Below, in pieces: positions 18,888 through 57,399 of a stretch of DNA of 64,000 bases. Source of the DNA: a virus; IMG/VR virus record IMGVR_UViG_3300020046_001459, positions 3,750 to 67,749 of that record; one strand, given 5' to 3'. The translations under genes were made by a program, and so were the position numbers. Positions within the stretch are counted from its first letter, which is position 1. Every line of letters begins with the position of its first letter. The notes under the pieces are model-generated. The model worked only from the letters and a program-made list of their open reading frames with translations, had not been told where the DNA came from and did not search any database.

Positions 18888-21800
18888 ATGGGTAAAAAAG
18901 AAAAATTTTCAGGTATTCCTCAAGAAGCCATTAACCAACCAATACAATTAGATCCAGCATTATTTAAACAAAAATCAGAATTTATAGGTTCTTCACAGAA
19001 TAAAGATTTTGGGGAAAGTAAGCTTGATACTAATGTACCTGTTTCAATGGTTGAATCAGGAGATTATAAATACTTACGTGGTCAAAAACAATCTAATTTG
19101 GATAAAGCTGCTCATGGAATTATCCGTGGGGTAGGAGCCGCTGCTCAAACTTTAGCAGATGGTACTGTTGGTATTGGTTATGGTTTGATGAAATATTCAT
19201 CAGATGTTGCTACAGATGAATTAAATAAAGCTAAATATAAAGCTGAACATGGTACTCTTGAAGGATTTAAACCTTCTTCATGGACTGCTATCTTTGATAA
19301 TGAAGTTACTAGAAAAGGTGAGGAACTTGTTAAGGATCTAGAAGGTGAAGTACCTCTCTATAATACTAAAGAGTATGAAGAGGCATCTGGTATTGAGAAG
19401 TTGAAATATATGAACTTCTGGATGGATGATGTTGTTAAAGGTATTGGTACCACAGTTGGTTCTATGCCTTTAGGAGCTATGGGCTCTAAATTATTTAATG
19501 CTATTGGTAAGAACTTTGTAGCTGGTAAACTAGCTAATGGGGTTAAGACTGCATTAACTGGTACTGAGAATCTGGAAAAGGTTCTTGTAGATCAAGCTAA
19601 AAAAATAAAAATATATAATGCCACAGATAAACTAACTGCCAGTGCTTTTGCTTCTGTAAGTGAGGCTGGTATGGAAGCTCGTGGTACAGGAGATAAATTA
19701 CGAGAACAGTTATTATCTGAAATCTCTGCTAATGGTACAAGACAACCTACTCAAGCAGAATTAGACTGGGTAGAAATGACTGTAGATGATGCTAAGAAAG
19801 CTGCTTTTGGAACTAACATGGCTATTATTAGTGGTACAGATTTCTTTACCTTTGGTAAGTACATGGTATCTAATAAGTCTGCTAAGTACTTAGACGATAT
19901 AGAAAAACTATCTTCTAAGACTAATGTTAATGCTGGAAAGTATATCAATAAGGTTTCTAAAGAAGGTTCTACATTAGGTACAGATTACGTAGCTACAGAG
20001 TTATCTAAAAGTAAAAAAATATTAGATGCTGTAACTAAAGCTACTAAGCGTGTTATAGGAACTAATCTTGGTGAAGGTATTGAAGAGAATCTTCAAACTG
20101 CTACTGATTGGGGAGTTATTGACTTCGCTAAACAAAAATATTATGGTAAGCAAGATGCAGAATCTTTCTTACATTCATTAGGCGCAGCCTATGAAGGTGC
20201 AACATCTTCTGAAGGTGTTGAGGCTTTCTTAGCCGGATTTATTAGTGGTGGTATCTCTAACACTATTCTATCTAAGGGACAAAATATTAAAGAAGCATTC
20301 TCTAAGGATCCTGTTGTTAATAATGCTTTATCACAAATAAACCTATACAACTCTCAAAGTGTTATGGGTGAGTTAATGAAAGGTGTTGCTGAACAGTATG
20401 CTGCTGGTGTGCGTATGGATAATGCTAAGAGTGATACTTTTACATTTAACAATGCTCAATCAGATTTAGCTACTAGTTATGTATTAAGTCGTATTAAGAC
20501 TGGTAAGTTTGAAGATTTACAAACAGATCTTGATGAGTTAAAATCAATGCCTTCTGATGAGGTAGAAAAACTATTTGGTGTTAAGATTGGTGAAGGTGGT
20601 AAGAGATCTGTAGTAGATTATATCCAAGGAAAGATGGAGCAAGCTAAACAGATCAAACAGATCCATGATGCTAGTTATGTTGTGTTCCCTGAAGGAACTG
20701 TATCTGATAATAATCGTGATAGATTAATACATGCTAATGTATCTATCTTAGACTCACAAAAACGTATAGACTCTGTTAATAAAGATATCTTAGAAAAAAC
20801 AACAGGTCTATCTGAAAACTATAGTGAGAACGGACAAGTATCTACTGTTAACCTATCTCATTTCACAAAATCTGATGGTACAGTAGTTAACTATAATCAA
20901 CTTTCAGGTAAAGAAAGAAGTGCTGTTAGTGGTGAAATAGTTGCTAGATTAGAAAATAGTTCTATAGCTCCTGTAGAAATTCCTGGAATATTTAATCAAT
21001 TACATGATTTAGATAGATTAAAAGTTAGGCATGATGCCTATAAGGATATTTATAATTCATTATTAAATCCTGTAGAGGCTGCTAAGTTAGATAAAGAAGA
21101 TGCTGCTATTGAGAAAGAAATAGTACAGGAGAATGCTGCTAAAAAACTACAAGAAGAAAATCCCATTGTTACCAAAACTACAGAAAGTAAATCTGCTGCA
21201 TTAGCTGCTGCTCAAAAAGAAGCTACTGAAAATGGTAATATTGATGTCAACACAGAAGATTTCGCTGATCCTAATATTAAAAAAGCTAATACTATTATAG
21301 ATAAGATTGGGGAATCACAAATAGATAATCCAATGTTTGATGCTTCTGGTAATTTTAATCCTGATGCGGAAGATCCTGGTAAAAAAACATATGATAATTC
21401 TAAAAAACCTTTAACTGTACATAAAGAAGTTCTATCTGGGAAAGATACTTTTAATAGAATACATGTTAATAAGCATGATGCACCCAACGTTAAGGTTAAT
21501 GAGCTTAGAAAAGCACTGAGTAATATTTTTAAACTTCCAAAATCTGAATGGAATAAATATATAAAAATAGATCTTACTAATTATTGGTCTACAAGAAATA
21601 CTTCCAGTGATCAAATTCATACTAATAAATCTAATTCCCCATTTAATACTAAAGGTAACCAAGATATAGATACTAAAATTATTATTATTGATCCTGCTAC
21701 AGGAAAGATAGTAGATGATTTCCATAATATAAAGTATCATAATATGCTTACTCCTAAGAAGGAGATGGTTATAGGTACTAAAACATATAAACCTGGTGAG

Positions 21801-24800
21801 TCTATTGAGATTGATCAGCTTACATATGAAGAGGCTGTAGAACTTTTTGCAATAAATCAAGATGAAGAATTAACTGAGGAAGAATTTGAAGCATACAAGA
21901 TCTCTTATAAAGAGATAAAAGACTTACGTAAAGCATTAACACTTTACTATGAGTCTACTAAGAAGAAAGATGAAGAGCACATGGAGGTTCCATCTAAGAT
22001 GTATGATGTAGCTCCATTATGGGCTCTTGATTATATTCAAGATGGTGCTGTAGAATATCCTGCTATAAGTACTATAGAAGGTGCTAAAGATACTGATGGT
22101 AAATATGTTATTTATCAAGGTGGTACTGTGCAGAAATTTTTGATTGGTACTGATACTAAAGTTGGAGATATAAATACCGTACCTAATGGTAGTGGTGTTT
22201 ATCTTCAAGTTACTTTGCCAGATGGCTCTAAGAAATGGATGCCTATTAAATCTGCTAAAGTTAAACCTGCTACTAAAGTATGGGAAAGAATTCAGAATGC
22301 TGCTGCAGAATTAGCTAAAATACCAGCAGGTAATAAAGAGGAAGCATACCAAGTTATTAAAGATTTATCTTTGTATGCCGCAGGTAGAGGTAAGTTGGAT
22401 TTTAGTTATGGTTGGAATTCTGATTTAAAAAAATACACATTACGTTTCAATGTTGGTAATGGTCTTGAAACTCCTAAGTCTATTGACTTATCAGAAGGTG
22501 TTTCTAAGACTGATAAAGCTACTATGCTTGAGAAGGATTTAAATTTCCTTATTAATCGTATTAACTATCATGCTAATAAGAGAGGAATATCTACTACTAT
22601 AGACGAAAATTCTTTTAGAGAAGATACCCCTATAGAACCATCTAATAAACCTATTGTAGGTAATTTTGTAGCTACTGCTACTGGATTTACACCTACTAAT
22701 ATTAAGATATATCCAGCTGATTTAGCTGTTAAAGAAGCTCCTGTTGTTGTATATAAGAAAAAAAGCACACCTACTAAAACAGAAAAAGCAGATGTTAAAC
22801 CTGAGCCTAAAACTAAGGTAGATGGACTTATAGAAGAAGATAAGAAATTTAAAGATAAGGGAATTACTAGAAAAAGAAAAGGTAAAAATGGTGCTGCAAA
22901 AACAGGTAGTACTACAAAAACCCCTATTGATCTACAGAAAGCCTTAGACTATTTAAAAGGTATATTACCTGCAGGTATTAAAGTTGAGATGTCCCATGTA
23001 GCTGAAAAGCTATCTAATGGTGATATGTTATGGGGATTCTTTAGTGATTCAGTATTGAAGCTTAACGCCTTAGCTGAAGCTGGAACTGAATTCCATGAAG
23101 CTTTTCATGCTGTATTTAGATCTGTATTATCTGATAAACAGATAGATACTTATTTATCAGTGGCTAAAAAAGAAATGAATCTTTCTGAAGCTCAGTTAGA
23201 GGCACGTAAAAATGAATTACGCTCTTTATATGATGAGATTAGTGAGAAAGAATTAGAAGATTTAGTTTATGAGGAATACTTAGCAGATAAATTCCAAGCT
23301 TGGAAAAAGGATAAAGCAACTCCTACTGCTGTAGTAAACAAAGGATTATTTAGAAGATTATTAGATTTTGCTAAAGAATTCTTAGGTATTAAATCTAAGG
23401 TAGATAGTTTATTTGAGCGTATAGATACTGGATATTATGCCGGTAAAGATGCTGTTATAAACAGATTTACAGATACAGATCAAGCAGCATATAAATCATT
23501 ACCAGGTAAAACAATAGCACAATCTAAAGATATTATTGTTACTGTTGCTGCAAAAGCTGCAGAAACTGCATTCAAAGAAAAGTCTAAAAAACCTGATATT
23601 ACCAGAGCTCTAGATGAATATATACAAGGTTATTCTTCAGAAGCTAACGTGGATGAGAAGAAAGCTGTACGTGCTTTACTACAAGAAGAGTATGAATACT
23701 TAACACATCCTGAGATCTATAAACAGATATTTACTGAAGTAAATAATATTACTAAGCGTTATAAGTATGATGCCATGACTGACTCTTTTCTTGAAATGGA
23801 AGAGTCTGAGGGCGGTGCTGAGAATTGGCAATTTGATCACTTTGAAGTAGGTGGTGTGGATATGTTAGATTCTGATATAAGATCTTTCCTAGCCTTAACC
23901 TTATATGAAACTAAGGATGAGTATGGACGTACTATTCAGAAAGCTATCAATTTAGATACTGTATATAATGCAATTATTACCAACTTAATTGATGTACACC
24001 CTTCTGAATTTTTATCTAGATTAAAAGTACTTAGTAAGTATAATCCTGAAGTTAGGGCTGTGGTTGCTAAGATTGAAGCTAAGACTAAAGATAGAGGACT
24101 TGTTGGAGAACAACTATTAAAGAAAATTCAGAAGTCATTTGAGCGTACTAAAATGAATTACTTAACCATACGTTCTGTAACTAATGGTACCTCAAATATA
24201 TTTAACTCTAACTATAAGTCTCCTGAAAAGAAACTATTCAATAATTGGTCTAACAACTATATACACAATATTTTAGGTAAATTAAGTTCTGATACTAAGT
24301 TTAAGAAGGAAGTTATTAAGAAGTTATTAGATATTCAAAAAGCTATTAATAATGATACTTCTACAGTAGGTGTTAAAAAAATACCTTTAAAAGAAGCTAT
24401 TATTAGCACATTAAATGAATTAGGTATAGATATTACCGAAGGTACAGTAGATTTATTCTTTACTCCTAATACGGATAACTCGTTAGATGCTATTAGAGAA
24501 CAATACAAAGATCTTGAGAAACCTATCGTAGGATTCTTTAGTCACCTTAGTAACTTAGTATCTAAAGGAGATCTTATCTATAAAGGAGCTCTTGAAACTA
24601 ATGATAAGGACTCTGTTGGTTATGTAAAGCAATTATTAAATTTAGCTATAGCAGATAAACATTTTAGAGCAGACTTATTTGAGTCATCTTTCCAAGACGC
24701 TAGAAATAAGAACAGATACTCTTTTATAATGCAGTCTTATTTATCAGACATGATTATAGAGTTACAGAAAGGGCTATCTTCTAAAACAGCTGTTGAAGAA

Positions 24801-27800
24801 AAACAAAAAGATCCTTACTTTGCTAAATCACCGTTATTTAAATTATTCACACCTGCTGTTATTGCTGATACTTTCAGTAATATGCAATTGTTATTTACAG
24901 GAGATTTAATTGAGGTAGAAGAAAAAACCTTCGATGGTAAAAAATCCTTTACTAAAAATGAACGTGTAGATGGTGTTACTGCTAAGAATATCAAGGCTAA
25001 AGAATACTTGCTTATGCAGTTATTATTATTTAGTGATCAACAAAAAAACACACAGACAGGATTAAACACAGCTAAGTATGTTGTAGGTGTAGAAGAGTCT
25101 AAATCTCAGATCTACGCTGTAGACTTACCTGTACTAACAGGAGTTGTTACAGAAGCAGGTATGATCAATGGGGATGGTGCTCTGCAAATATTTAATACTA
25201 TATTCTCTCAAGAAATTGATAGGTTAATAAATGGTATTCCTTCTAAAAAGAAGGGGTTTGCTTATTTTAATGACTTTAATAATAGAGAGAAATATAAAGC
25301 TTTACATGATACCTTTGAAGGAGAATATAATACAAAAGGAGAGCTTGTAAAAATTAATAGGATTGCTAATAATGATACTTTTAAAGCAGAGGCTTTGAAA
25401 GCTATTACACAAACTGTTAATGAAGAAATAACAGATGTATTATCTATGGCTAATGAATATCAATTAGCTGATAGAACTAAGAATGGTGTTGAGACCTATG
25501 GTACTTTCGATAAGTTAGTAGGTTCTGCTGTAGTTAATGACTTTTTAATGTCTTCCTCAATAGATCAACTTGTTGATGGAGATTTATCACAATATAAAGA
25601 TGTCGATGATAAATTTAAGCGTAATGGCGGTAGAAATGCAGCTGGTATAAACAGATCTGGTAGTGAGATTAATGTTGCTTATACTACTGAGTCTAAAGAA
25701 ACTAAGAAAGATTCTATCTCAGGAGATGCTGAAATAAATGTAGATGATGCTCAAGTATATTCTTCTGTACAAGATAGGATAAATATGTTAAGTGATTTTG
25801 GTAGATTAACACCAGAAATAGAAGATATTCTTAATCGTATAGATAATCCTCCTATTGTTAATGGTGTACCTCAGTTTATTACAGAAGAAGAAGCTAGTAA
25901 GGTAGACTTAGTTGCTGCTAAGTTAGTTACCTATGGTAAAGATAATGCTGGTAATTTAATTTACCACAAGATGTCTGTATTCCCTTTAACTAAACAATTT
26001 ACGTCAAGATATGATGCTAAGTCTGAACGCTGGGTAGCTTTACCAGGAAGAGAAAAACTACACAATAAGAGGGAGTGGATGGAGAAACATAATATTCATC
26101 AACTGATACCATTATCAGCTTCTAAATTAACTAGTCCTGATAATATTATTAAGCATGAAAGCTTCAATAGTTCTGATTTTGATGTGAATAATCATTTTGG
26201 GTATAAAGATAAAGATGGTAATCTTAAATCTTACGCAAAATATAATGGTAAATTCCAACGTTTACAAGTAGAGAATGATTCTGGTTCTACAGAGATTGTT
26301 AATGGTACTCAAAAAATACAGTTGATTACTGCTGGTCTTGACATGACTAAAGATAGTAATGTCAATGATGTTAAAAAGTATTATGAATTGTTAGCTAAAC
26401 TACGTCAAACCTTATTTGATGATGCTTTAAGTATACTAAGTACATCAAAAGAAGGTAAAACAAGACGTAAGGATCTTAAAGTATTCATTAACAAATTGAT
26501 GAATAATGCTGCTTCTAGTGGTTCTAGTTTTATTATGGAACAATTCTTAGCTGAAGAAGGCGGAGATTTTAAAAATGATCCTAACTTACCACACTTATTA
26601 AGTCAGTTTGAGAAGTATTTCTTAGCACACTTTAATAAAGGTGTTATGATTCAGAAAACTACTGGTAATAAACTTACATTAGTAAGTGCTGATGGTATTA
26701 AAGTACATCGTGATAATTATGGTAAAGTAATTTCTGCTGAGGAGTTAGCTGTTAATCCCAAGTTAGCTGTTAATCCGGCTGAAGATTTACGTATCCATAA
26801 AATGGAAAATGGTAAGTTACAGTATGCTGAGGTTATGATGACTAGACGTTCTGCTGAACTACTAGGACTTAAACCTGGTGATAGTCTAACTGCAGAAGAA
26901 GTTAAGATCATGTTGGGTACTCGTATCCCATCACAGTCTCAACACTCTATGATGCCATTTAAAGTTGTAGATTTCTTACCTGACTACTATGGTGATAGCA
27001 TAATAGGCCCTAAAGAATTAGTATGGTTATCAGGAGCTGACTTTGATATTGATAAGTTGTATGTCTATAGAAAAGGTACCTACAGAAATAAAAAAGGTGA
27101 CCTTGTTATTTTTGGTAAGGGTAATGCTTTTGAAGAATACACATTATCTAAAAAAAATACTAAGGTATTTAAAGATACCTTGGAGAAGATGGTTTTAGAG
27201 AATCCTACTTTCCCTGAATATAAGGATTTACTAGATAGACGTAATGCTATTTATGCTTCTTTAGAAGAAAACTTAGCTAAATCTAAAAAAGAAGACCAGC
27301 GTGCTTTATTGAGAGGTATTAAAAATTTAAAAAACTTAATTAAAATTAATGCTATTAATTCTAAAGAAGACGAAGATCATCCTTTAGTACAAGAAAGAAG
27401 AAAAGCTCAACTTTTATTTGACTCTATTAAAGATGATTTAGATAAATATACTACTGCTGCTGGCGGTGGTATGTCATTATCTAGTATTAATGATCGTATA
27501 ACTCAATTTGAAGAAGCTTATGAATTAGATGCTATGGAAGAACTTGGTTTTATTACTTCTAGTACTGAATCAGTTCCACCCGCAGCTGAGACTTTACAAA
27601 ATCAATTATTAGACTTAGAATTATCTCTATTAGATAGACCAGAACTAGAGGAGTCCTTAAAGACACCTGCTAGTGTAGACACTCTTAAAACCATTGCTAA
27701 CACTCTAACTAAAGTAGGTGGAGCTAAGTTAAATAAAGCAAGGTTATCTTTAGGATTATTATCTAAATTTATTGGTAAGAAGAATATTGATATTGGTAAA

Positions 27801-30125
27801 GAAAATATTGGTATTGCTGCTAATGGCAACATAGCCAATGCTTGGTTAACTACTAATAGAATCCACTTAAAAGATGAATTTGCTATTAATCTAGACGGTA
27901 AAAACTATGGTAGTTTTGAGTTTGTTAATGAAGAAGATATGGTGTTGAATGAAGATGGTACTTTGAATAAAGAACTTATTCGTAAACCTAAATCTGATAC
28001 TATTTCTACTGAACTATCGGCTGCTACAGATAACGCCAAAGAACAATTAGCATCATTAGTTAATCGTGCTAGTGATATTTTAAATGGGGTGTTAGTTTGG
28101 CAATCTTTAGGATTAGGGCAGACACGTACTACTATTATGGCTGTACAACCTATCATGGTTGAACTTACAGAAAAGATAGAGTTAACTAAATCTAATATTG
28201 ATAAGAAATCCCTTAAGATAGGTACATCAATGGTTCCTAGAGCTAAAGATGTTGCTGGAGCGCTTATGGAAGATCTTATGCAAAAATTCTATGCTGCTGC
28301 TGAAAAAGAAATGGAAGCAGCTAATATAAAAGGTACTCGTGAGGATATTAAGGAACCTCAGTATTCTTTAAACACTGAACAGTTACTAGAAATTTATAAG
28401 AAAGGTAAAGCTGAAACTTCTGACGAAATTCTACAGCAAATAGCTGTATTAGGTGCATATATCAAAGCTATGGAAGTTAATGATGCTAACACTAAATTAT
28501 TATCTTTATTAAAAGTTAATAAGGGAGTAGGATCTGAACTAACCAATCTTGAAACCATAGCTGAAAATTATGAGGCTTTACAAGATTCTGCACAAATACC
28601 TTATGGTCAAAGTTTTGTAAACGCACTTAGAACACATCCTAATATTAAAGTAAATAAGGATATGGCTAGAACTATAAAGAATATAGCGTCTGAATTTTTT
28701 ATTCGTGAGACTGGTGGTTATAAAATTTTTCAAAATAGATTTGGTAAGTTATTTGGAAATAGAAATTTTAGAGAAAAACAAAAGGCTGTTAAGGACTTTT
28801 TAACATTCCTAAATTTACGTATCTATGAGAAAACCCTACGTGAAGATTATGGTGATGACAGTTTTAGATTAGATGAATTGAATAAATTAGCTTACTCTGG
28901 TATAGAGGAAGGTAGTGTTTCTATTATAGCTGACTTTAATGCTTTATTAAAAACTGATTCAGTACTAGAAGTAATAGCATCTAATTCAAAGAAAGAATTT
29001 GCAAAGAATGATTTAGTTAAGTGGTTAACTGTAAAACCAGCAGATTCTAACTATAGAAGAATAGACTTATTAACTGTTGATACCCGTGCTAAACTGTCTA
29101 ATGATGTATTAGAAAAGTTTAACCAATCATTAAATGATCTTTATAACTCTTCTAACGCGGATATAAAACAATTTGCACAGGATGTATTTGATTATTTAGT
29201 TGTAGAAGGTAATCTAAAGTTTACTAACGAAAGTTTAATTAAGTTTATAGGACCAGAATTCTTCTTAAGTATATCTAAGAAGTTGAAAGAAGTTACTAAA
29301 CTCTTTGGTACTGTTGGTCCTAAAGAACTTTCTGTTGAGGATAAAACTTTTAATGCTAAGTTACAAACTGCTACTGGTTATACCTTTTCAGAGCTAGTTA
29401 ATATGTATACAGAGTTATATGCACGTAGTACTAAAAATGCTAAGAATTTAATAAATGTACACGGTAAAGATTTTAAAGAATCCTTTACAGTAACTTTGAA
29501 TAAAGATGTATTGTCTGTTGATTTAATTGATGTTGAAAAAGCAAACCAACAATCTTTTATGGAGGGTATTGTAGAAGATAAGACTGTTGTAGGATTAAAG
29601 TTCCCTGCCTTTTTAGGTGTAGTTGGTAAAAATCAAATGATGGAGGATTATCATGATGTTTATAAACTGACTGAAAGTACAGACTTCAAAGCTGTATATA
29701 CAAGAGTTGATAAATTTTATGACTTACATAACCCTATGTTACATCTATCTCCAGAGGAGGCCACTAAGTTATCTCAATACCTAGCTAGTAAAAAAGGTAG
29801 TTTTAATGGGGCTTATTCTGATAATGTAGAGTATACTCAAGAAGATTTAGATTTTGCTAACGCACAATTTCAGAGAGCTAAACCAGAATATGCTTATGAA
29901 CCTGGTAGTAATATAGAAAATGCACCTGATTTAGATGATGAGAATTTACCTGGTACTATACCTGCTTCTTTAGTATCTAGAATAGAAACTATAGGTGAAG
30001 AAGAATATGAGGTACCATTAAGATACTGGGAAGCTGCAGATGCTGAAGCTGAGCGCCAACAAGGTAAGACCCCAGATGTAGATGATAATAATTTACCAGA
30101 TATTAAAGATCCAAACTGTGATTAA
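18888..30125 (+). CDS. giant protein (3745 aa) with RNA-polymerase-like DxDxD catalytic-loop motif; candidate virion-packaged RNA polymerase as in crAss-like phages
   Basis: Single uninterrupted ORF; motif WLSGADFDIDKLYVY (DFDID) ~residue 2720 resembles the NADFDGD loop of the RNA polymerase double-psi beta-barrel; highly basic K-rich linker near residue 1290. Confidence 0.7.
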   Translation: MGKKEKFSGIPQEAINQPIQLDPALFKQKSEFIGSSQNKDFGESKLDTNVPVSMVESGDYKYLRGQKQSNLDKAAHGIIRGVGAAAQTLADGTVGIGYGLMKYSSDVATDELNKAKYKAEHGTLEGFKPSSWTAIFDNEVTRKGEELVKDLEGEVPLYNTKEYEEASGIEKLKYMNFWMDDVVKGIGTTVGSMPLGAMGSKLFNAIGKNFVAGKLANGVKTALTGTENLEKVLVDQAKKIKIYNATDKLTASAFASVSEAGMEARGTGDKLREQLLSEISANGTRQPTQAELDWVEMTVDDAKKAAFGTNMAIISGTDFFTFGKYMVSNKSAKYLDDIEKLSSKTNVNAGKYINKVSKEGSTLGTDYVATELSKSKKILDAVTKATKRVIGTNLGEGIEENLQTATDWGVIDFAKQKYYGKQDAESFLHSLGAAYEGATSSEGVEAFLAGFISGGISNTILSKGQNIKEAFSKDPVVNNALSQINLYNSQSVMGELMKGVAEQYAAGVRMDNAKSDTFTFNNAQSDLATSYVLSRIKTGKFEDLQTDLDELKSMPSDEVEKLFGVKIGEGGKRSVVDYIQGKMEQAKQIKQIHDASYVVFPEGTVSDNNRDRLIHANVSILDSQKRIDSVNKDILEKTTGLSENYSENGQVSTVNLSHFTKSDGTVVNYNQLSGKERSAVSGEIVARLENSSIAPVEIPGIFNQLHDLDRLKVRHDAYKDIYNSLLNPVEAAKLDKEDAAIEKEIVQENAAKKLQEENPIVTKTTESKSAALAAAQKEATENGNIDVNTEDFADPNIKKANTIIDKIGESQIDNPMFDASGNFNPDAEDPGKKTYDNSKKPLTVHKEVLSGKDTFNRIHVNKHDAPNVKVNELRKALSNIFKLPKSEWNKYIKIDLTNYWSTRNTSSDQIHTNKSNSPFNTKGNQDIDTKIIIIDPATGKIVDDFHNIKYHNMLTPKKEMVIGTKTYKPGESIEIDQLTYEEAVELFAINQDEELTEEEFEAYKISYKEIKDLRKALTLYYESTKKKDEEHMEVPSKMYDVAPLWALDYIQDGAVEYPAISTIEGAKDTDGKYVIYQGGTVQKFLIGTDTKVGDINTVPNGSGVYLQVTLPDGSKKWMPIKSAKVKPATKVWERIQNAAAELAKIPAGNKEEAYQVIKDLSLYAAGRGKLDFSYGWNSDLKKYTLRFNVGNGLETPKSIDLSEGVSKTDKATMLEKDLNFLINRINYHANKRGISTTIDENSFREDTPIEPSNKPIVGNFVATATGFTPTNIKIYPADLAVKEAPVVVYKKKSTPTKTEKADVKPEPKTKVDGLIEEDKKFKDKGITRKRKGKNGAAKTGSTTKTPIDLQKALDYLKGILPAGIKVEMSHVAEKLSNGDMLWGFFSDSVLKLNALAEAGTEFHEAFHAVFRSVLSDKQIDTYLSVAKKEMNLSEAQLEARKNELRSLYDEISEKELEDLVYEEYLADKFQAWKKDKATPTAVVNKGLFRRLLDFAKEFLGIKSKVDSLFERIDTGYYAGKDAVINRFTDTDQAAYKSLPGKTIAQSKDIIVTVAAKAAETAFKEKSKKPDITRALDEYIQGYSSEANVDEKKAVRALLQEEYEYLTHPEIYKQIFTEVNNITKRYKYDAMTDSFLEMEESEGGAENWQFDHFEVGGVDMLDSDIRSFLALTLYETKDEYGRTIQKAINLDTVYNAIITNLIDVHPSEFLSRLKVLSKYNPEVRAVVAKIEAKTKDRGLVGEQLLKKIQKSFERTKMNYLTIRSVTNGTSNIFNSNYKSPEKKLFNNWSNNYIHNILGKLSSDTKFKKEVIKKLLDIQKAINNDTSTVGVKKIPLKEAIISTLNELGIDITEGTVDLFFTPNTDNSLDAIREQYKDLEKPIVGFFSHLSNLVSKGDLIYKGALETNDKDSVGYVKQLLNLAIADKHFRADLFESSFQDARNKNRYSFIMQSYLSDMIIELQKGLSSKTAVEEKQKDPYFAKSPLFKLFTPAVIADTFSNMQLLFTGDLIEVEEKTFDGKKSFTKNERVDGVTAKNIKAKEYLLMQLLLFSDQQKNTQTGLNTAKYVVGVEESKSQIYAVDLPVLTGVVTEAGMINGDGALQIFNTIFSQEIDRLINGIPSKKKGFAYFNDFNNREKYKALHDTFEGEYNTKGELVKINRIANNDTFKAEALKAITQTVNEEITDVLSMANEYQLADRTKNGVETYGTFDKLVGSAVVNDFLMSSSIDQLVDGDLSQYKDVDDKFKRNGGRNAAGINRSGSEINVAYTTESKETKKDSISGDAEINVDDAQVYSSVQDRINMLSDFGRLTPEIEDILNRIDNPPIVNGVPQFITEEEASKVDLVAAKLVTYGKDNAGNLIYHKMSVFPLTKQFTSRYDAKSERWVALPGREKLHNKREWMEKHNIHQLIPLSASKLTSPDNIIKHESFNSSDFDVNNHFGYKDKDGNLKSYAKYNGKFQRLQVENDSGSTEIVNGTQKIQLITAGLDMTKDSNVNDVKKYYELLAKLRQTLFDDALSILSTSKEGKTRRKDLKVFINKLMNNAASSGSSFIMEQFLAEEGGDFKNDPNLPHLLSQFEKYFLAHFNKGVMIQKTTGNKLTLVSADGIKVHRDNYGKVISAEELAVNPKLAVNPAEDLRIHKMENGKLQYAEVMMTRRSAELLGLKPGDSLTAEEVKIMLGTRIPSQSQHSMMPFKVVDFLPDYYGDSIIGPKELVWLSGADFDIDKLYVYRKGTYRNKKGDLVIFGKGNAFEEYTLSKKNTKVFKDTLEKMVLENPTFPEYKDLLDRRNAIYASLEENLAKSKKEDQRALLRGIKNLKNLIKINAINSKEDEDHPLVQERRKAQLLFDSIKDDLDKYTTAAGGGMSLSSINDRITQFEEAYELDAMEELGFITSSTESVPPAAETLQNQLLDLELSLLDRPELEESLKTPASVDTLKTIANTLTKVGGAKLNKARLSLGLLSKFIGKKNIDIGKENIGIAANGNIANAWLTTNRIHLKDEFAINLDGKNYGSFEFVNEEDMVLNEDGTLNKELIRKPKSDTISTELSAATDNAKEQLASLVNRASDILNGVLVWQSLGLGQTRTTIMAVQPIMVELTEKIELTKSNIDKKSLKIGTSMVPRAKDVAGALMEDLMQKFYAAAEKEMEAANIKGTREDIKEPQYSLNTEQLLEIYKKGKAETSDEILQQIAVLGAYIKAMEVNDANTKLLSLLKVNKGVGSELTNLETIAENYEALQDSAQIPYGQSFVNALRTHPNIKVNKDMARTIKNIASEFFIRETGGYKIFQNRFGKLFGNRNFREKQKAVKDFLTFLNLRIYEKTLREDYGDDSFRLDELNKLAYSGIEEGSVSIIADFNALLKTDSVLEVIASNSKKEFAKNDLVKWLTVKPADSNYRRIDLLTVDTRAKLSNDVLEKFNQSLNDLYNSSNADIKQFAQDVFDYLVVEGNLKFTNESLIKFIGPEFFLSISKKLKEVTKLFGTVGPKELSVEDKTFNAKLQTATGYTFSELVNMYTELYARSTKNAKNLINVHGKDFKESFTVTLNKDVLSVDLIDVEKANQQSFMEGIVEDKTVVGLKFPAFLGVVGKNQMMEDYHDVYKLTESTDFKAVYTRVDKFYDLHNPMLHLSPEEATKLSQYLASKKGSFNGAYSDNVEYTQEDLDFANAQFQRAKPEYAYEPGSNIENAPDLDDENLPGTIPASLVSRIETIGEEEYEVPLRYWEAADAEAERQQGKTPDVDDNNLPDIKDPNCD
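26744..26776 (+). repeat. in-frame tandem duplication (15-bp exact repeat GTTAGCTGTTAATCC x2, period 18) inside giant gene
   Basis: Encodes LAVNPK LAVNPA. Confidence 0.6.
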
Positions 30126-52705: not shown

Positions 52706-53707
52706 TTAATCTATTAAGTTATAATTATTATATACTGTAGGTGTATTACTATCTTTAATGAATTTATTTAGATATTTTGACCTAAAAGTTACTTGTCCTT
52801 CGACAGTCTTTATTTCAGGCTTTTTAATCTCAAACTTTTTAACAGGTAATAAAACCTCTGGTTTATATGTTTGGTTTAAATAACCATTCTTAATTGATTC
52901 TGCCCAATCCCTTTGCTCACTAATAGTCTTTAATTCTGGTAAATGTACCCCTGAGAAAAACTCAGATATACCAGATTTAATAACAACTTTTATCTTATTT
53001 GGATTAGTCATTATATTGAATAAATATTTAGTAACTTTAGTATGATTCATTGAAGTTATACTATCAGTTTCACAGTTTACCCAAAATTCAAATTTAGATA
53101 CATCTATAGGTAATCCAAGTAGATTAGCCCCTTTATAATAATCTATGTAGGTTTTATCTATCATTAACATTACTAAAGGTCTAATCTTAGAATCATTACC
53201 TAACACACCTCCAAATCCTTTACTTACAAAAAGAAAGCTACTACCTAAGATACCAGTATATAAACTTCTATACGATAGTGGTACAGATACTTTTGCATAG
53301 TTATTAACAAATATCTTACTTGTAATATTGTTAAACATAGCATGATATGCTATTGTTTTAGTAAAATTATTTGTATAAACAAAAGCTGAAGCATCATACA
53401 TACATGAATCATATGTATCTAAGTAGTTTGCAAAATTTCTAGCAGCTGTTCTTTTAGTACTCTCCAACTGATCATGATGAATGTCTTCTCTTAAAAGACA
53501 CTTAATAAAGTCAAAACTACCTCTAGTAGGAACACTCTTATTCGTATAATATAAATCAATAGATTCATAATCACCTAATGCGTTAGTATTAAAACTTGGT
53601 AGAATACATACAGGAACATGAGTATCTGTTGACTTTAATCTAAACAATGGAGAGGCTACTGAACTAGTGGACAGTGGCTTACATATAGTTAAATCACGTA
53701 GGTTCAT
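52706..53707 (-). CDS. hypothetical protein (333 aa), last gene of E1/JAB operon
   Basis: ATGA-coupled to E1-like gene. Confidence 0.5.
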   Translation of the reverse strand: MNLRDLTICKPLSTSSVASPLFRLKSTDTHVPVCILPSFNTNALGDYESIDLYYTNKSVPTRGSFDFIKCLLREDIHHDQLESTKRTAARNFANYLDTYDSCMYDASAFVYTNNFTKTIAYHAMFNNITSKIFVNNYAKVSVPLSYRSLYTGILGSSFLFVSKGFGGVLGNDSKIRPLVMLMIDKTYIDYYKGANLLGLPIDVSKFEFWVNCETDSITSMNHTKVTKYLFNIMTNPNKIKVVIKSGISEFFSGVHLPELKTISEQRDWAESIKNGYLNQTYKPEVLLPVKKFEIKKPEIKTVEGQVTFRSKYLNKFIKDSNTPTVYNNYNLID

Positions 53708-54426
53708 TTTATTTCAAAATTAAATAATGCTAATTGATAATCTATATTAAATGGTAATGCTCTGATAGGTGTCTTTAAATTAACTAAGAAGTTATTAAAA
53801 CCACTAACCATTAAACTTGCTATCATTGTTGAACAATGTGTAGTACCTTTATAGGAACAGTCTTCTAAAGCAACCTCAGAGTCATCAAATAATGTAGCTC
53901 TATATTGTTCTATTCTGTCTGTAGTGACAAAAAATACTTGACCTATTTCTGCTAGTAATCTACCATCAATAAATATAGCATCTTTACTATCTTTATATTG
54001 TGTAGCCCAAGCTTCAAACAAGATCTTCCTAGCCTCCATATTATCAAAACAAGAAAAGCAATATTTATCTATACTTACTGTATTTTCAGTTAATTCTCCT
54101 AGATCAATAAATTTACCATTTTTATCAATCATAGGATCTGCAAAATTAACCAATGATTCACACAAAGCTGTTGTCTTAAGATCTCCTATATTACCATGTA
54201 TATATAGCTGTGAAGCTAAATTAACCTCATCTACAGTATCTTTATCATAAACAAACAAGGTAACACCCTGTCTGGCTAAAAATAAAGCTACCCATGATCC
54301 TATATTACCAACACCACCAACAATAGCTGTTGCGTCCTTAGCTTGGTTAAACCAAGGAGCATTAGAAAATCTAGACTTTTTAACATCAATATCTTCAAGA
54401 ATTGATATAACTTCATTATTTTCCAT
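53704..54426 (-). CDS. E1-like ThiF/MoeB-family adenylyltransferase
   Basis: VGGVGNIGSWVALFLARQGV...DKDTVDEVNLASQ and CFDNMEAR motifs. Confidence 0.8.
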   Translation of the reverse strand: MENNEVISILEDIDVKKSRFSNAPWFNQAKDATAIVGGVGNIGSWVALFLARQGVTLFVYDKDTVDEVNLASQLYIHGNIGDLKTTALCESLVNFADPMIDKNGKFIDLGELTENTVSIDKYCFSCFDNMEARKILFEAWATQYKDSKDAIFIDGRLLAEIGQVFFVTTDRIEQYRATLFDDSEVALEDCSYKGTTHCSTMIASLMVSGFNNFLVNLKTPIRALPFNIDYQLALFNFEIK

Positions 54427-55609
54427 CTTTTTTACCTTTTTTAAGTTTTAAAAATGCTTTATCTAATCCAGCAATAGCTTTACTAAGCTGATTTTCATTA
54501 CTAAATTTATGTATCTTAGGTGTTTTTTTTGTTTCTACTGCAAAATCAGCAGGTTCATCCACGTCAATATACATATCAAATATATCAATGATTTTATCGT
54601 AAAATGGATATCCTGATAAACGATATTTATCTAAGCACATAATACATTGTTTAAAGAATGCATTATGATGTTCTATTTCTAGAGTATCTCCAAAAACAGC
54701 ATAGTATGTAGTATTTAGACCAAAATCAAAGGCATCCCAAAACATTAAATCAAAAGCTTCACCGTACTGTTTCTGCTCTTTCTTAATATGGTCTAGTACT
54801 TCTTTAAGTCCCTCTGCAGTTTTTGTATCTAGAGATAAGGCTTTACTTAAATAAGACTCTATTTCAGAAACTGTTTTAGGTATATAAGGATTTGATTTAC
54901 CAAAACCCTCTCCAAACTGCGCTCCTAGATTTAGTTGATTAGAAGGGGTGGGGAAAGAAGGTCTGTTAAAAGATGTTACTTTCTTTACTGCTTCCGCTTC
55001 TGTTTTAGCTTTTCTGATAGAATCATATCTATCAAAATCAAATGTATCTAATTCATACTCTATAACACAATTAATAGTAAGTAATTGTTTATCCAATGTA
55101 GGTTTACTATCCTCAAGTCCTTTAAAAGAAAGACCATGACTAAATTTATACTTAGTTTCAACTTCAATATCAGCAATAATTCCTATCTTAGCGCAGAAAT
55201 TACCACCATTTCTAAAGTTTACAATTAATGATAAGTAAAAATTATGTGCTCCTGCGTTAGATTTTAATTCTTCTGTATCAGTTCCACTGAAAAATGCCTC
55301 CATATCATGATGTGTATGGAGCATTCCCCACTTCATTGTTAGTGCTTCAGGATATTTCTGATAAAAGTCTACAATAGACTCATCAGGTGAAAACTCTGTA
55401 TATGCTGCAGAACCAATATCCATCAAATAGACACGTTCTGCCTTTAGTACTAGTGTAGCAGGATCATTAATATCCCCTGATACAATTTTATAAAATACTA
55501 ATCCACTCCACTCAATATTACCAACTTTATGGTGTAGGTATGACACCTGTGCTAATACCTCTTTAGAAATAATTAGTCTTGCTTTACTCTTAAATTCAAC
55601 TTGTTGCAT
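54416..55609 (-). CDS. JAMM/JAB (MPN+) metalloprotease with ~230-aa C-terminal extension
   Basis: IEWSGLVF (E..G.L) and HTHHDMEAFFSGTD = HxHx7Sx2D. Confidence 0.8.
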   Translation of the reverse strand: MQQVEFKSKARLIISKEVLAQVSYLHHKVGNIEWSGLVFYKIVSGDINDPATLVLKAERVYLMDIGSAAYTEFSPDESIVDFYQKYPEALTMKWGMLHTHHDMEAFFSGTDTEELKSNAGAHNFYLSLIVNFRNGGNFCAKIGIIADIEVETKYKFSHGLSFKGLEDSKPTLDKQLLTINCVIEYELDTFDFDRYDSIRKAKTEAEAVKKVTSFNRPSFPTPSNQLNLGAQFGEGFGKSNPYIPKTVSEIESYLSKALSLDTKTAEGLKEVLDHIKKEQKQYGEAFDLMFWDAFDFGLNTTYYAVFGDTLEIEHHNAFFKQCIMCLDKYRLSGYPFYDKIIDIFDMYIDVDEPADFAVETKKTPKIHKFSNENQLSKAIAGLDKAFLKLKKGKKDGK

Positions 55610-56909
55610 ATTCTTTATTATAGTATTCGTTTATTTTTGACTCTAAATGTAGTTTGGCATCTCTCAGCAAACTTTTAGAGATTTGGTAAGTAGTTTCACT
55701 TATTGTATTATCATCATATAGATGTGGTTCTTTATTAAACATTTTAGCTACCTTAAGTACTTCAGCAGATTTATTTGTACTACGAGTTACATTTAGTGCA
55801 TTATGTGATGTTATTAAATATTCTGATCCATCGTTATCTACGTTAACTAAATAATCTACTTCTGCATAACCAGCTTCCTGAATCTTTTTTAGGACAGATG
55901 CCTCTAGAGTTTTATCTATAGTAACCTTAAATTTATTTGAATTTTTTACATATACCACATTAAAATCAGAAGGACCATAAGAAGCATTACGTACATATAT
56001 TCTCACTCTTGAAGGTGCACTATAGTAGTCTCCACGCCTCTTAATATCTGATAATTTAATGTAAGGACCACCAGCTAGTGACTCATGTTTAAGATAATTT
56101 TGAATCATATGTATGAATAGTTCATACTTAAGAGGTGTAAATTTATTATGTAAGCGTAAATCCATATTCATGGCTGCTATTTCTGTAGAGCCCAAACAAA
56201 AGGAATTAAACTTAAATGTATCTACTTCTCTAGGTAGATGTGAATGTCTATAACCAACATTAGCTTCTGTAGATCCCCAAGATAATCTAGTTCCTTTAAT
56301 AAGATCTGATAAAATAAATATTTTCTCACCAGCATTATTATTTGATACTATAAAAGGAATCTTAACTACAATATCTTTTAAGAGACGTTCTGACGAAGGA
56401 TTACCATTACTAATTATAACTTCTGGATAAAGTAAATAAACATCTAACTTGTTTTGAGCTAAATTAATATCAAACCTACAATTATCCCCATGTGCTTTTT
56501 TAGTAATTTCCACTATAGAATCACTTAATTTTAATAGATCTGCATATTTGCTTTTATTTAACTCTGTTACAATAAGAGGATCAATTCTTGAACTTGAAAA
56601 AGTATCTAATGCATCATTTGCTGCACGTTGTAATTTTGTATATTCTTGATATAGAGAAACACTCTCATTTATACTAGAGATATCTATAGCTGATAAAACA
56701 CTTTTATCAACTTCTTTAGAGTTAAGATACTCTTTCCCACCATCATACCATAATAAGCGCACACCATCATTCTCTTCAAATAAAGTAAATACATCATATG
56801 ATGGAGATACAACTATGATATAAAAAGATGAATCACCACTAAATCTTTCTCTCAAAGACCAGGTTACTTCTGTTTCTTGTTTTACTTCTTCTAAAACTTC
56901 TAATTCCAT
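55596..56909 (-). CDS. hypothetical protein (437 aa), first gene of E1/JAB operon
   Basis: Overlaps JAB gene start by 14 nt; contains YRHSHLPREVDTFKFNSFCLG. Confidence 0.5.
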   Translation of the reverse strand: MELEVLEEVKQETEVTWSLRERFSGDSSFYIIVVSPSYDVFTLFEENDGVRLLWYDGGKEYLNSKEVDKSVLSAIDISSINESVSLYQEYTKLQRAANDALDTFSSSRIDPLIVTELNKSKYADLLKLSDSIVEITKKAHGDNCRFDINLAQNKLDVYLLYPEVIISNGNPSSERLLKDIVVKIPFIVSNNNAGEKIFILSDLIKGTRLSWGSTEANVGYRHSHLPREVDTFKFNSFCLGSTEIAAMNMDLRLHNKFTPLKYELFIHMIQNYLKHESLAGGPYIKLSDIKRRGDYYSAPSRVRIYVRNASYGPSDFNVVYVKNSNKFKVTIDKTLEASVLKKIQEAGYAEVDYLVNVDNDGSEYLITSHNALNVTRSTNKSAEVLKVAKMFNKEPHLYDDNTISETTYQISKSLLRDAKLHLESKINEYYNKEYATS

Positions 56910-56938
56910 ATATAATATATTAAATAAAAAGAGTTAGG

Positions 56939-57163
56939 CTAATTGCCCAACTCTCTTTGTAATTTTTCGTATTCTGATATAATCTCTGCTTTATCTTCTT
57001 CCTCATCTTCTGATTCTAAGTCTGCTTGAGTATCCTCAAGGGCACTTATATGATCTTCCACAGCATCTTTAACTTCTGCTACAGTTTCTGCAGCAAATAG
57101 TGCTTGTGTAAATGAGTTCATTTGATTAGCTAAGATTTCTTTAAAATCTATTACTTCTGACAT
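56939..57163 (-). CDS. small acidic protein (74 aa)
   Basis: ORF; ends ..RELGN. Confidence 0.4.
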   Translation of the reverse strand: MSEVIDFKEILANQMNSFTQALFAAETVAEVKDAVEDHISALEDTQADLESEDEEEDKAEIISEYEKLQRELGN

Positions 57164-57399
57164 ACTTTCCCAGCTTTATTTTTAGCAGTAAACATATATA
57201 AAGTAAACTCACCTTCTGGAAGAGCAGCATCATTTACTTCTAATGAATTCTTTGTTTCTGCAACAATACCTTTCATATTATCAGTACTAATTCCATTAGC
57301 ACGTAAATCAGGTAATAAAGTTCCCCAAGTTCTTGCCTCTGACATAATTTCTACTGGCAAATTAGTGCTTGGATTCACTACTGTTATCTTTCTTGACAT
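57151..57399 (-). CDS. small protein (82 aa), possible beta-grasp/ubiquitin-like fold
   Basis: Alternating beta/alpha pattern KITVV..LPVEI..TWGTLLPDL..EFTLYMFT. Confidence 0.4.
   Translation of the reverse strand: MSRKITVVNPSTNLPVEIMSEARTWGTLLPDLRANGISTDNMKGIVAETKNSLEVNDAALPEGEFTLYMFTAKNKAGKVCQK

Follow-up and report, generated by a model that had tools for sequence, protein, structure and literature searches.

The window analysed here, a stretch of 64,000 nucleotides, comes from a crAss-like phage. Judging from its coding sequences, this phage probably encodes a cassette for the conjugation of a ubiquitin-like protein (Ubl). The conserved unit consists of four genes, encoding a Ubl, an E2-like protein, a JAMM/JAB metalloprotease (JAB) and an E1-like enzyme, and extends from the gene of an 82-aa protein to the E1 gene. 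An earlier sequence-only reading had offered three functional options (phage-directed conjugation, counter-defence, and modification of nucleic acids or cofactors), and of these, Ubl conjugation agrees better with the evidence than a sulfur-carrier or cofactor pathway does.

A conserved four-gene cassette

Six open reading frames are tightly packed on the minus strand at this locus. Neighbouring genes overlap by 13, 14, 11 and 4 nt, and the sole gap in the run is one of 29 nt between the genes of a 74-aa and a 437-aa protein. The sequence-only reading had described a unit of the 437-aa, JAB, E1 and 333-aa genes. The first three are indeed core members, but the 333-aa gene lies outside the unit and the 82-aa Ubl gene belongs to it. 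The 333-aa gene (52706..53707) is translationally coupled to the E1 gene and clade-specific; homologues of its product are confined to loci L003-L006, and no family or PDB match was found for it. We rejected it as a fifth component because no similarity to it could be detected in the genes downstream of E1 in the crAss001-type, FpV4-type and other lineages (phmmer; hhalign probability <1%).

The four families were syntenic in the majority of the 18 first-round loci and in 8 further contigs from genome collections; thus, the arrangement is not due to chance. For instance, the synteny is kept in crAss001, DAC15, cr85_1, cr128_1, FpV4 and contigs from IMG/VR and metagenome-assembled genomes (MAGs), and the E2-like family comprises 3,095 clusters at 50% identity. 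Far from being a peculiarity of the window phage, the cassette is widespread among crAss-like and Flavobacterium phages, many of them uncultured. No near-identical DNA was present in the annotated phage collection. The neighbouring genes bear out that the cassette sits inside the replication block of the window phage, and it was always found amid genes of replication or early type. Xanthomonas and Erwinia jumbo phages were rejected as carriers; they have a ThiF homologue, and the adjoining 892-aa protein matches no cassette family or Pfam entry. Existing records label the cassette genes as "thiamine biosynthesis protein" or "hypothetical protein", and these labels are misleading.

The ubiquitin-like protein

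The 82-aa protein (57151..57399, minus strand) includes a beta-grasp at residues 3-71, a flexible tail, Gly77 and a 5-aa extension, KVCQK. A beta-grasp-like pattern had been suspected from the letters, and the fold is indeed a beta-grasp of the ubiquitin type, nearer in structure to ubiquitin, FAT10 and ISG15 than to MoaD or ThiS. The protein had also been said to lack a C-terminal Gly-Gly. It has no terminal Gly-Gly, but a conserved C-terminal Gly does exist, namely Gly77 (codon 57169-57171), on the flexible tail before KVCQK and six residues past the last strand (65-71). A search of homologous phages for a Ubl ending in G or GG had been suggested, and there the Gly is invariant but never the final residue.

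The extension after this Gly is variable. It measured 1-116 aa in all complete homologues (67/67), and 21 of the 67, including the window Ubl, are essentially stand-alone Ubls with just 1-5 extra residues, which indicates that the tail is dispensable and the Gly is not. Most phages have the Ubl at the N-terminus of a longer protein, whose tail of 100-250 aa carries its own conserved motifs. Furthermore, two loci have the Ubl and the tail as separate genes split exactly after the Gly, with a 55-nt spacer in L064 and an inserted HNH endonuclease gene in L063.

The 74-aa acidic protein encoded next to the Ubl (56939..57163, minus strand) is clade-specific, with homologues limited to close relatives (L003, L005, L006 and L066). 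Its gene occupies the slot of the tail ORF found after gene fission in other phages. Similarity to the Ubl tails (HMM E about 0.01 in an 83-sequence database; hhalign E 0.028) weakly suggests that it may be a detached form of the C-terminal tail that other phages have fused to the Ubl; BLASTP against the tails of P0187 and P0181 was not significant.

Given its fusion to a tail in most phages, the Ubl could also be an adaptor domain that is not cleaved. In such a non-conjugating system, the beta-grasp would be a cleavable or permanent chaperone or adaptor of the tail protein, the JAB a maturation protease and the 437-aa protein a scaffold, and the E1 would adenylate another substrate, for example a peptide C-terminus, as MccB and PaaA do. 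Ubiquitin itself serves as a chaperone- or adaptor-like N-terminal module in ribosomal fusion proteins, and TAPI plays such a part in lambda. In addition, the fused tails with their own motifs fit this explanation, and a Ubl and JAB pair occurs without E1 or E2 in lambda-like phages (PMC1779556). However, the stand-alone Ubls speak against it, and the fact that Ubl, E1, JAB and a Cys-bearing protein strictly occur together in very divergent phages is hard to reconcile with an unrelated E1 substrate. We regard a non-conjugating role as unlikely.

The JAMM/JAB protein

The 397-aa protein (54416..55609, minus strand) has a catalytic domain at residues ~1-150, followed by a helical C-terminal half specific to the family. 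Its JAMM active site had been described as intact, and the motif residues were verified in the window. They comprise E33 within NIEWSG (codon 55511-55513) and H98xH100x7S108xxD111 (55277-55318), where HTHHDMEAFFSGTD gives the pattern HxHx7SxxD; E33, H98, H100, S108 and D111 are all invariant in a family alignment of 14 homologues. In Pfam, Prok-JAB (PF14464) scored 19.1 bits, below the cut-off of 25, but the assignment is supported by matches of the family profile to CSN5 in the PDB (E 0.0034) and to JABs like PRTRC protein A (hhalign probability 97%, E 1e-10). Related loci were gathered by scanning DNA with a degenerate motif for the active-site signature of the JAB. The scan yielded mostly PRTRC-like JAB-ThiF pairs in the same gene order, with a Ubl ending in GTKG.

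The E1-like protein

The 240-aa protein (53704..54426, minus strand) is a minimal E1-like adenylyltransferase. Its assignment as ThiF agrees with the Pfam match (PF00899, 57.6 bits against a cut-off of 28.1, E 1.4e-15, residues 29-217), and its motifs had been read correctly, namely GVGNIG in the GxGxxG loop (54298-54315), DKDTVDEVN as the DxD...N motif and CFDNMEAR as FDNMxAR (54028-54051). An N-terminal R19 is also present, and Cys190 (codon 53857-53859) is near-invariant. Across 16 homologues, the motifs that bind ATP and Mg are conserved, in that G38, G40, G43, D61, D63, N69, K84, D128, N129 and R133 are invariant or near-invariant. Alignment and domain search revealed neither CxxC zinc motifs nor a fused E2, rhodanese or Cys domain.

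The family profile matched MccB, ThiF, UBA5, UBA1, UBA3, MoeB, Cap2 and BubCD in the PDB. The top PDB sequence matches were MccB and PaaA, which are peptide-modifying E1-like enzymes and would suit an E1 with a substrate other than the Ubl. Within NCBIfam, ThiF models scored best. PADLOC returned only partial matches to CBASS E1-E2 models, covering the Rossmann part of the E1 over ~70 residues in 21 of 22 models.

Minimal single-domain enzymes of the ThiF/MoeB type classically serve sulfur-carrier pathways, and this, together with the NCBIfam scores, speaks for a pathway of the ThiS/MoaD/TtuB type. Here the E1 would adenylate the Gly of the Ubl, a thiocarboxylate would form, and its sulfur would pass to a thiolated nucleotide, tRNA, DNA base or cofactor; the JAB would merely mature the carrier, and the 437-aa protein would accept or insert sulfur through Cys238. 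However, no rhodanese, cysteine desulfurase, PP-loop ATPase, ThiG/ThiH or MoaE was found in or beside the cassette at any locus scanned, and the Ubl fold points away from MoaD and ThiS. Furthermore, the 437-aa partner resembles E2/UEV/RWD folds rather than any known sulfurtransferase in structural comparison, and the closest recognisable operon kin are PRTRC cassettes, not thiamine or Moco loci. A sulfur-carrier pathway is quite unlikely on this evidence.

A probable E2-like carrier

The 437-aa protein (55596..56909, minus strand) consists of a variable N-terminal region, a putative UBC/RWD-like core at residues ~123-273 and a C-terminal domain. An H..C segment, YRHSHLPREVDTFKFNSFCLG, had been proposed as a possible divergent E2 catalytic region, and it was correctly read. 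It belongs to the invariant motif Y220-x-H222-S223-H224 ... C238-x-G240 (56190-56252) in the E2-like core. H222-S-H224 and C238 are invariant among the homologues, with HPH in one, and are located in a loop past the sheet. A further motif of this protein is E276-S277-x-x-G280-x-P282-Y (56061-84). From the modelled fold, the 437-aa protein is probably an E2-like carrier, with Cys238 as the candidate catalytic residue.

The proposal of an E2-like region did not gain support from homology to E2 families at the sequence or profile level. Pfam gave zero matches for 15 members of the family, NCBIfam and PADLOC did not recognise the 437-aa protein, and a PDB profile search with the family found nothing. 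Likewise, hhalign gave a probability of 0.1% against four canonical E2s and no significant similarity to PRTRC_B. Foldseek with the 437-aa model against the PDB returned no significant match and no E2. These negative results count in favour of a scaffold role. BubB and Cap2 were among the weak structural or sequence matches to the cassette proteins.

Proposed conjugation cascade

Under the preferred reading, Ubl conjugation, the 82-aa product would be the Ubl precursor, as suggested by its fold and invariant Gly. The JAMM protease would cut after Gly77 and remove KVCQK in the window phage; in other phages the part removed would reach as much as 250 aa (at most 116 aa in the 67 homologues for which it was counted). 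We infer this cleavage from the variable tails, the gene fissions at exactly this point and the precedent of BilC. The minimal E1, with its motifs intact, would adenylate its presumed substrate, the Gly77 carboxylate, with ATP, and Cys190 may form a thioester with the Ubl. Transfer to Cys238 of the E2-like protein is suggested by the fold resemblance, the invariant HSH...C motif and the position in the slot of PRTRC protein B. The N- and C-terminal flanking domains of the 437-aa protein probably choose the target, and the Ubl would be placed on lysines of phage or host proteins. In addition, the JAB could undo the conjugation.

Because the cassette always lies among genes of replication or early type, host takeover, replication control or counter-defence would be likelier functions than virion building. 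We tentatively propose, with a little less than even confidence, that Bacteroidota phages (among them crAss001, DAC15 and FpV4) operate a Ubl cascade of their own while they infect the host. Its E2-like proteins would form a new H-S-H...C family whose flanking domains act as a built-in E3, and the tagging of proteins from host or phage might, for instance, switch off host defences or regulate replication.

Implications

We found no published description of the cassette as a phage Ubl system in the literature on crAss-like phages with ThiF, JAB and ubiquitin or on crAss001 gp76-79. To our knowledge, the prokaryotic Ubl-conjugation systems characterised by experiment (Type II CBASS, Bil and Bub) are all host defences against phages. 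Bacteria tag phage proteins with the same kind of toolkit, and here the toolkit is on the phage side. If the proposal is true, this would be the first time that a complete Ubl conjugation pathway is assigned to a prokaryotic virus, and the pathway would be the mirror image of the tagging of phage proteins by Bil, Bub and CBASS. Protein tagging might be used by phages too, and the phage Ubl and JAB might interfere with tagging by the host. According to the literature, crAss-like phages are the most abundant phage group in the human gut. The carriers crAss001 (host Bacteroides intestinalis), DAC15 (B. thetaiotaomicron) and FpV4 (Flavobacterium psychrophilum) are in culture together with their hosts, so the conjugation hypothesis is directly testable.

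Comparison with known systems

Neither NCBIfam nor PADLOC assigned the cassette to PRTRC, Bil or CBASS. The ThiS-ThiF, MoaD-MoeB and archaeal SAMP-UbaA pairs share with it a minimal E1 of ~240-270 aa and a beta-grasp protein ending in Gly, and SAMP/UbaA conjugates without a canonical E2. However, these pairs sit beside sulfur-transfer or biosynthetic partners, none of which accompanies the phage cassette. Moreover, the phage E1 differs in having no CxxC zinc motifs, and the phage Ubl has an E2-like companion and is predicted to need processing.

Bub (6E/DUF6527) operons and Type II CBASS with Cap2/Cap3 also represent prokaryotic conjugation based on E1, E2 and peptidase. Cap2, however, is an E2-E1 fusion that conjugates a CD-NTase and not a Ubl, and no CD-NTase or effector was found in the window. 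Bub operons differ in using other peptidases and Ubls with multiple beta-grasps (PMC11601603).

Lambda and T1 encode TAPI, a Ubl, and TAPK, a JAB plus NlpC/P60 protein. TAPI is likewise a phage Ubl with a conserved C-terminal Gly and a fused C-terminal domain whose release by JAB is predicted (PMC1779556). This pair, however, has neither E1 nor E2 and belongs to a tail morphogenesis module with a ThiS/MoaD-like Ubl, whereas the present cassette lies in a replication module with an E1 and an E2-like protein.

BilABCD, the bacterial ISG15-like anti-phage system (Types I and II), resembles the cassette in its four separate proteins, namely Ubl, E2, JAB deubiquitinase and E1. In both, the Ubl is structurally closest to ubiquitin, and in Bil Ubls, a Gly conserved throughout precedes variable residues, which the JAB cuts off (PMC10557695). 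However, Bil is a host defence and the present cassette is phage-borne. The Bil E1 is multidomain, with inactive and active adenylation domains and CYS, in contrast to the single 240-aa domain of the phage E1, and the Bil E2 is described as of the CEHH type, in contrast to HSH...C...E in the phage protein (PMC10557695). No sequence-level match to the cassette proteins was found for BilABCD.

PRTRC, the ParB-related, ThiF-related cassette (NCBIfam TIGR03735-03738), which is presumably operon class 6d of Iyer et al. 2006, shows several likenesses. They include a small Ubl with a conserved Gly end (GTKG, with an optional short tail), the order of Ubl, Cys-bearing protein B, JAB (protein A) and minimal ThiF, the last three directly adjoining, and the same JAB active-site signature, HxHxxMxxFFSGTD. 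Both are carried by mobile elements. On the other hand, the phage E2-like protein is twice as long as protein B, and its H-S-H...C-x-G motif contrasts with N-x4-G-x-V-C-x-G of protein B. In phages, moreover, a long tail is often fused to the Ubl.

These likenesses raise the question of whether the cassette is a maintenance or partition-associated module of the PRTRC type, derived from plasmids or integrative conjugative elements and serving phage genome maintenance or replication instead of protein tagging. Besides the shared JAB signature and gene order, the position inside the replication block would fit such a role, and a PRTRC cassette was called a "partitioning cassette" in a study of Burkholderia prophages (PMC13366799). 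However, no ParB and no PRTRC protein D, E or F was found among the neighbours scanned, and the window proteins fall below every PRTRC model cut-off (the E1 scored 32.4 bits against PRTRC_ThiF, with a cut-off of 144.75, and the models for A, B and C were unmatched). Moreover, such an explanation names a context and not a mechanism, and we think it quite unlikely. It overlaps with Ubl conjugation more than it competes with it, because a Ubl/E1/E2/JAB system has been predicted for PRTRC itself (PMC1779556). Mobile elements such as PRTRC might also link the phage system and the defence systems by common ancestry.

Organization and genomic setting of the cassette

In the window, six minus-strand ORFs are packed closely within 52706-57399: the 82-aa ubiquitin-like (Ubl) ORF (57151-57399), a 74-aa ORF (56939-57163), the 437-aa ORF of the putative E2-like protein (55596-56909), the 397-aa JAB ORF (54416-55609), the 240-aa E1-like ORF (53704-54426) and a 333-aa ORF (52706-53707). 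Their junctions are overlaps of 13, 14, 11 and 4 nt and a single gap of 29 nt. The cassette is flanked by genes for a DNA polymerase (phrog_1252), a SNF2/ResIII-type helicase, a DnaB-like helicase and a primase, and the region is the replication block of a large phage, as the sequence-only reading had placed it.

We searched 18 first-round loci using the window proteins and iterated HMMs, and found a constant order of Ubl-domain protein, 437-aa family, JAB family and ThiF. The carriers include crAss001 (gp79-76), DAC15, cr85_1, cr128_1, FpV4 (gp53-50) and 11 of the 12 IMG/VR contigs, the sole exception being L009, in which the Ubl-domain ORF was not detected. In addition, there were eight further full or partial cassettes in MAG contigs. 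The 74-aa, 90-aa, 225-aa and 333-aa genes were found only in close relatives of the window, and the gene downstream of E1 showed no detectable similarity between lineages. Therefore, the four-gene operon first read from the sequence (437-aa, JAB, E1 and 333-aa) was shifted by one gene: its first three members belong to the core, while the 333-aa gene lies outside it and the Ubl takes its place.

No DNA nearly identical to the window was found in the annotated phage collection; the proteins of L003, an IMG/VR contig, are 96-100% identical to those of the window. The G+C content of the window is about 32%. At about 34000-35500, where the coding strand changes from plus to minus, both the GC skew and the AT skew reverse sign, and this is the border of two divergent transcription blocks. 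The window also encodes a 545-aa nicotinamide phosphoribosyltransferase (36897-38534, minus strand; phrog_448, E 1e-148), an NAD-salvage gene of the type linked to counteracting NAD-depleting defences. Furthermore, a single ORF of 3,745 aa occupies 18888-30125 on the plus strand. Such giant ORFs are typical of crAss-like phages, where they encode virion RNA polymerase or cargo proteins. The ORFs of 1,608, 902, 693 and 1,320 aa around it had no PHROG match.

The E1-like and JAB proteins

The 240-aa protein is ThiF-like, as had been proposed, since it passed the Pfam ThiF threshold (57.6 vs 28.1 bits). Among 16 homologues, the GxGxxG loop, D61xD63, N69, K84, D128-N129, R133, the N-terminal R19 and Cys190 (CSYKxTT) are invariant or nearly so, and the family profile matched MccB, ThiF, UBA5, UBA1, UBA3, MoeB, Cap2 and BubCD in the PDB. 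The window E1 is a minimal, single-domain protein that has neither CxxC zinc motifs nor a fused E2, rhodanese or Cys domain. Judged by numbering rather than by an aligned position, Cys190 may be the counterpart of the cysteine in the crossover loop of ThiF/MoeB-type enzymes. One alternative is that the cassette is a sulfur-carrier pathway. However, it includes no sulfur-transfer partners, and its Ubl is nearer to ubiquitin than to MoaD.

The E1s of crAss001-type phages (L001:5554-6711 in crAss001, L017:6767-7732 and L018:6707-7717) carry an additional N-terminal region of about 80-150 aa, which is missing in the window and FpV4 E1s; Pfam matched only their ThiF part and left the extension unmatched. 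A ThiF homologue with 31% identity is present in Xanthomonas phage PhiXhv-12 (L015:4247-7621) and in an Erwinia jumbo phage. In these jumbo phages, it stands directly after the gene for an 892-aa protein, which matched neither the phage E2-like family, the JAB family nor Pfam. This pair may be a separate E1-associated system.

The 397-aa protein scored 19.1 bits against Pfam Prok-JAB, under the 25-bit threshold. Its active site is intact as previously described, with E33 and the HxHx7SxxD residues (H98, H100, S108 and D111) invariant in 14 homologues, and the motif in the family profile aligned to CSN5 (E 0.0034). The last 250 residues of the protein are specific to the family and largely helical. 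In some relatives, homing endonuclease genes break up the cassette. For instance, a LAGLIDADG gene lying on the other strand divides the JAB region at L064:7021-9235 in two. At L010:5366-6983, JAB is present as two ORFs (112 aa and 280 aa) that are 436 nt apart.

The invariant glycine and the tails of the Ubl

The invariant glycine of the Ubl (Gly77 in the window) was never the terminal residue in 67 complete homologues. In 21 of them, 1-5 residues come after it (K, N, KF, KC, KI, YGC, KCQM or KVCQK), and in the other 46 there are 16-116. The tails are longer still in cultured phages, where the whole proteins reach 225 aa (crAss001 gp79) and 289 aa (FpV4 gp53). Two apparent gene fissions, in the related loci L064 and L063, both fall precisely at the point between Gly and tail. 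The L064 Ubl gene ends with ...KKIKSGKF-stop, and after a 55-nt spacer the tail has its own ORF starting MSRSEIYDKIKKYGLQNEC; in crAss001, where Ubl and tail are fused, this sequence comes after ...KKIKSG-A. An HNH/NUMOD4 homing-endonuclease gene (L063:5309-5857) lies exactly between the Ubl and the tail ORF in L063.

Type II BilA Ubls have a universally conserved Gly followed by no more than nine non-conserved residues, which are removed by the JAB protein BilC (Chambers et al., PMC10557695). The phage Ubls show the same pattern of a conserved Gly and variable following residues, and from this likeness we infer that the phage JAB would cut the Ubl after Gly77. Such cleavage might also serve a system of Ubl-tail maturation without conjugation, but the stand-alone Ubls with tails of 1-5 residues speak against this explanation.

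The tail, which most of the phages have fused to the Ubl (crAss001 gp79, L001:2571-2700, and homologues), opens with a conserved MSRAEAYNAIKARGLQNECVKRFGKNFTMCKTQDLIDLL stretch, which by eye looks like a SAP/HeH-type bihelical motif, and closes with S-x-x-E-I-(D/N)-x-M-F-x-F, likewise conserved. Pfam gave no match to it.

The 437-aa protein

The 437-aa protein had no match in family libraries or in a profile search of PDB sequences. A profile search over 1.84 billion cluster representatives gave 3,095 family matches at E<=1e-3, 2,762 at E<=1e-10 and 644 at E<=1e-30. In 150 representatives, N168, Y220, H222, S223, H224, C238, G240, L251, E276, S277, G280 and P282 are invariant. In a more divergent set of loci, in which one member has H-P-H instead of H-S-H, the invariant residues are N168, R208, H224, C238, G240, E276, S277, G280 and P282. 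Thus, the H..C segment singled out in the sequence-only reading is central to the family.

The AlphaFold2 model (27 sequences, pLDDT 75) comprises a small N-terminal sheet, long helices, a core and a C-terminal alpha/beta domain. The core has a helix (123-140), four strands (144-149, 154-167, 175-190 and 196-212), a loop with HSH and Cys238, and two further helices (243-252 and 259-273). Foldseek against the PDB found no E2 for this model, and hhalign gave no significant alignment to PRTRC protein B or to four canonical E2s. We consider it rather probable that the protein is a UBC-fold E2-like carrier with Cys238 as the catalytic residue.

Relationship to PRTRC systems

The JAB signature HxHxxMxxFFSGTD was turned into a degenerate DNA pattern, with no ThiF criterion, and scanned against one genome per species in 185,579 species. 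Of the 44 loci found, 8 were phage-type cassettes, and nearly all the others came from MAGs of bacteria and archaea and had JAB adjoining a ThiF gene. Sampled JAB-ThiF loci matched PRTRC proteins C (Ubl), B and A (JAB) and PRTRC ThiF in NCBIfam under trusted cut-offs, and are clearly related to PRTRC. The Ubls of these loci have ...VGTKG at their C-terminus, in some cases followed by a short tail. The motif P-x-x-N-V-x-x-d-G-r-V-C-x-G of their protein B aligned to the E2 motif PNIxxxGxVCL (E 0.0014), and their JAB aligned to the phage JAB at 97% probability.

All window proteins fell below the cut-offs of the NCBIfam PRTRC models, and no ParB was found near the cassette. Therefore, the phage cassette is a relative of PRTRC rather than a member. 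A PRTRC-like maintenance role, itself undefined, overlaps with a conjugation pathway more than it excludes one. A PRTRC cassette, termed a 'partitioning cassette', is carried by a Burkholderia prophage (PMC13366799).

PRTRC-like JAB-ThiF pairs bearing the same signature in their JAB are found in MAGs of Woesearchaeota, Thermoplasmata and Nanobdellati (archaeal loci L023, L035, L047 and L052) and in several bacterial phyla, including Dehalococcoidia chromosomes (L037 and L059) and Victivallales (L046/L048), where one contig has two copies. PRTRC is usually reported from proteobacterial plasmids, and these pairs are spread beyond them.

Proposed pathway and comparison with known systems

A Ubl conjugation pathway is the best-supported reading of the cassette. 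Taking the observed folds, motifs, conservation, synteny and fission points together, we infer its chemical steps and the existence of targets. JAB would expose Gly77, E1 would adenylate it, and the Ubl would then be transferred onto Cys238 of the E2-like protein, whose variable N-terminal and conserved C-terminal domains would choose the targets. The cassette always lies among replication and early-type genes, a position that points to targets involved in taking over the host, in replication or in counter-defence.

The cassette is widespread and is present in the phage group that dominates the human gut, and cultured phage-host pairs that carry it make the pathway testable. In public records, its genes are annotated as 'thiamine biosynthesis protein', 'metalloprotease domain containing protein' and 'hypothetical protein'. 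In the literature open without subscription, we found no paper that ties crAss-like phages or FpV4 to ThiF, JAB or ubiquitin-like systems. Prokaryotic Ubl/E1/E2/JAB systems are already known. The phage cassette differs from them in that its E2-like family was not recognised before, its Ubl often carries a long fused tail, and its E1 is minimal.
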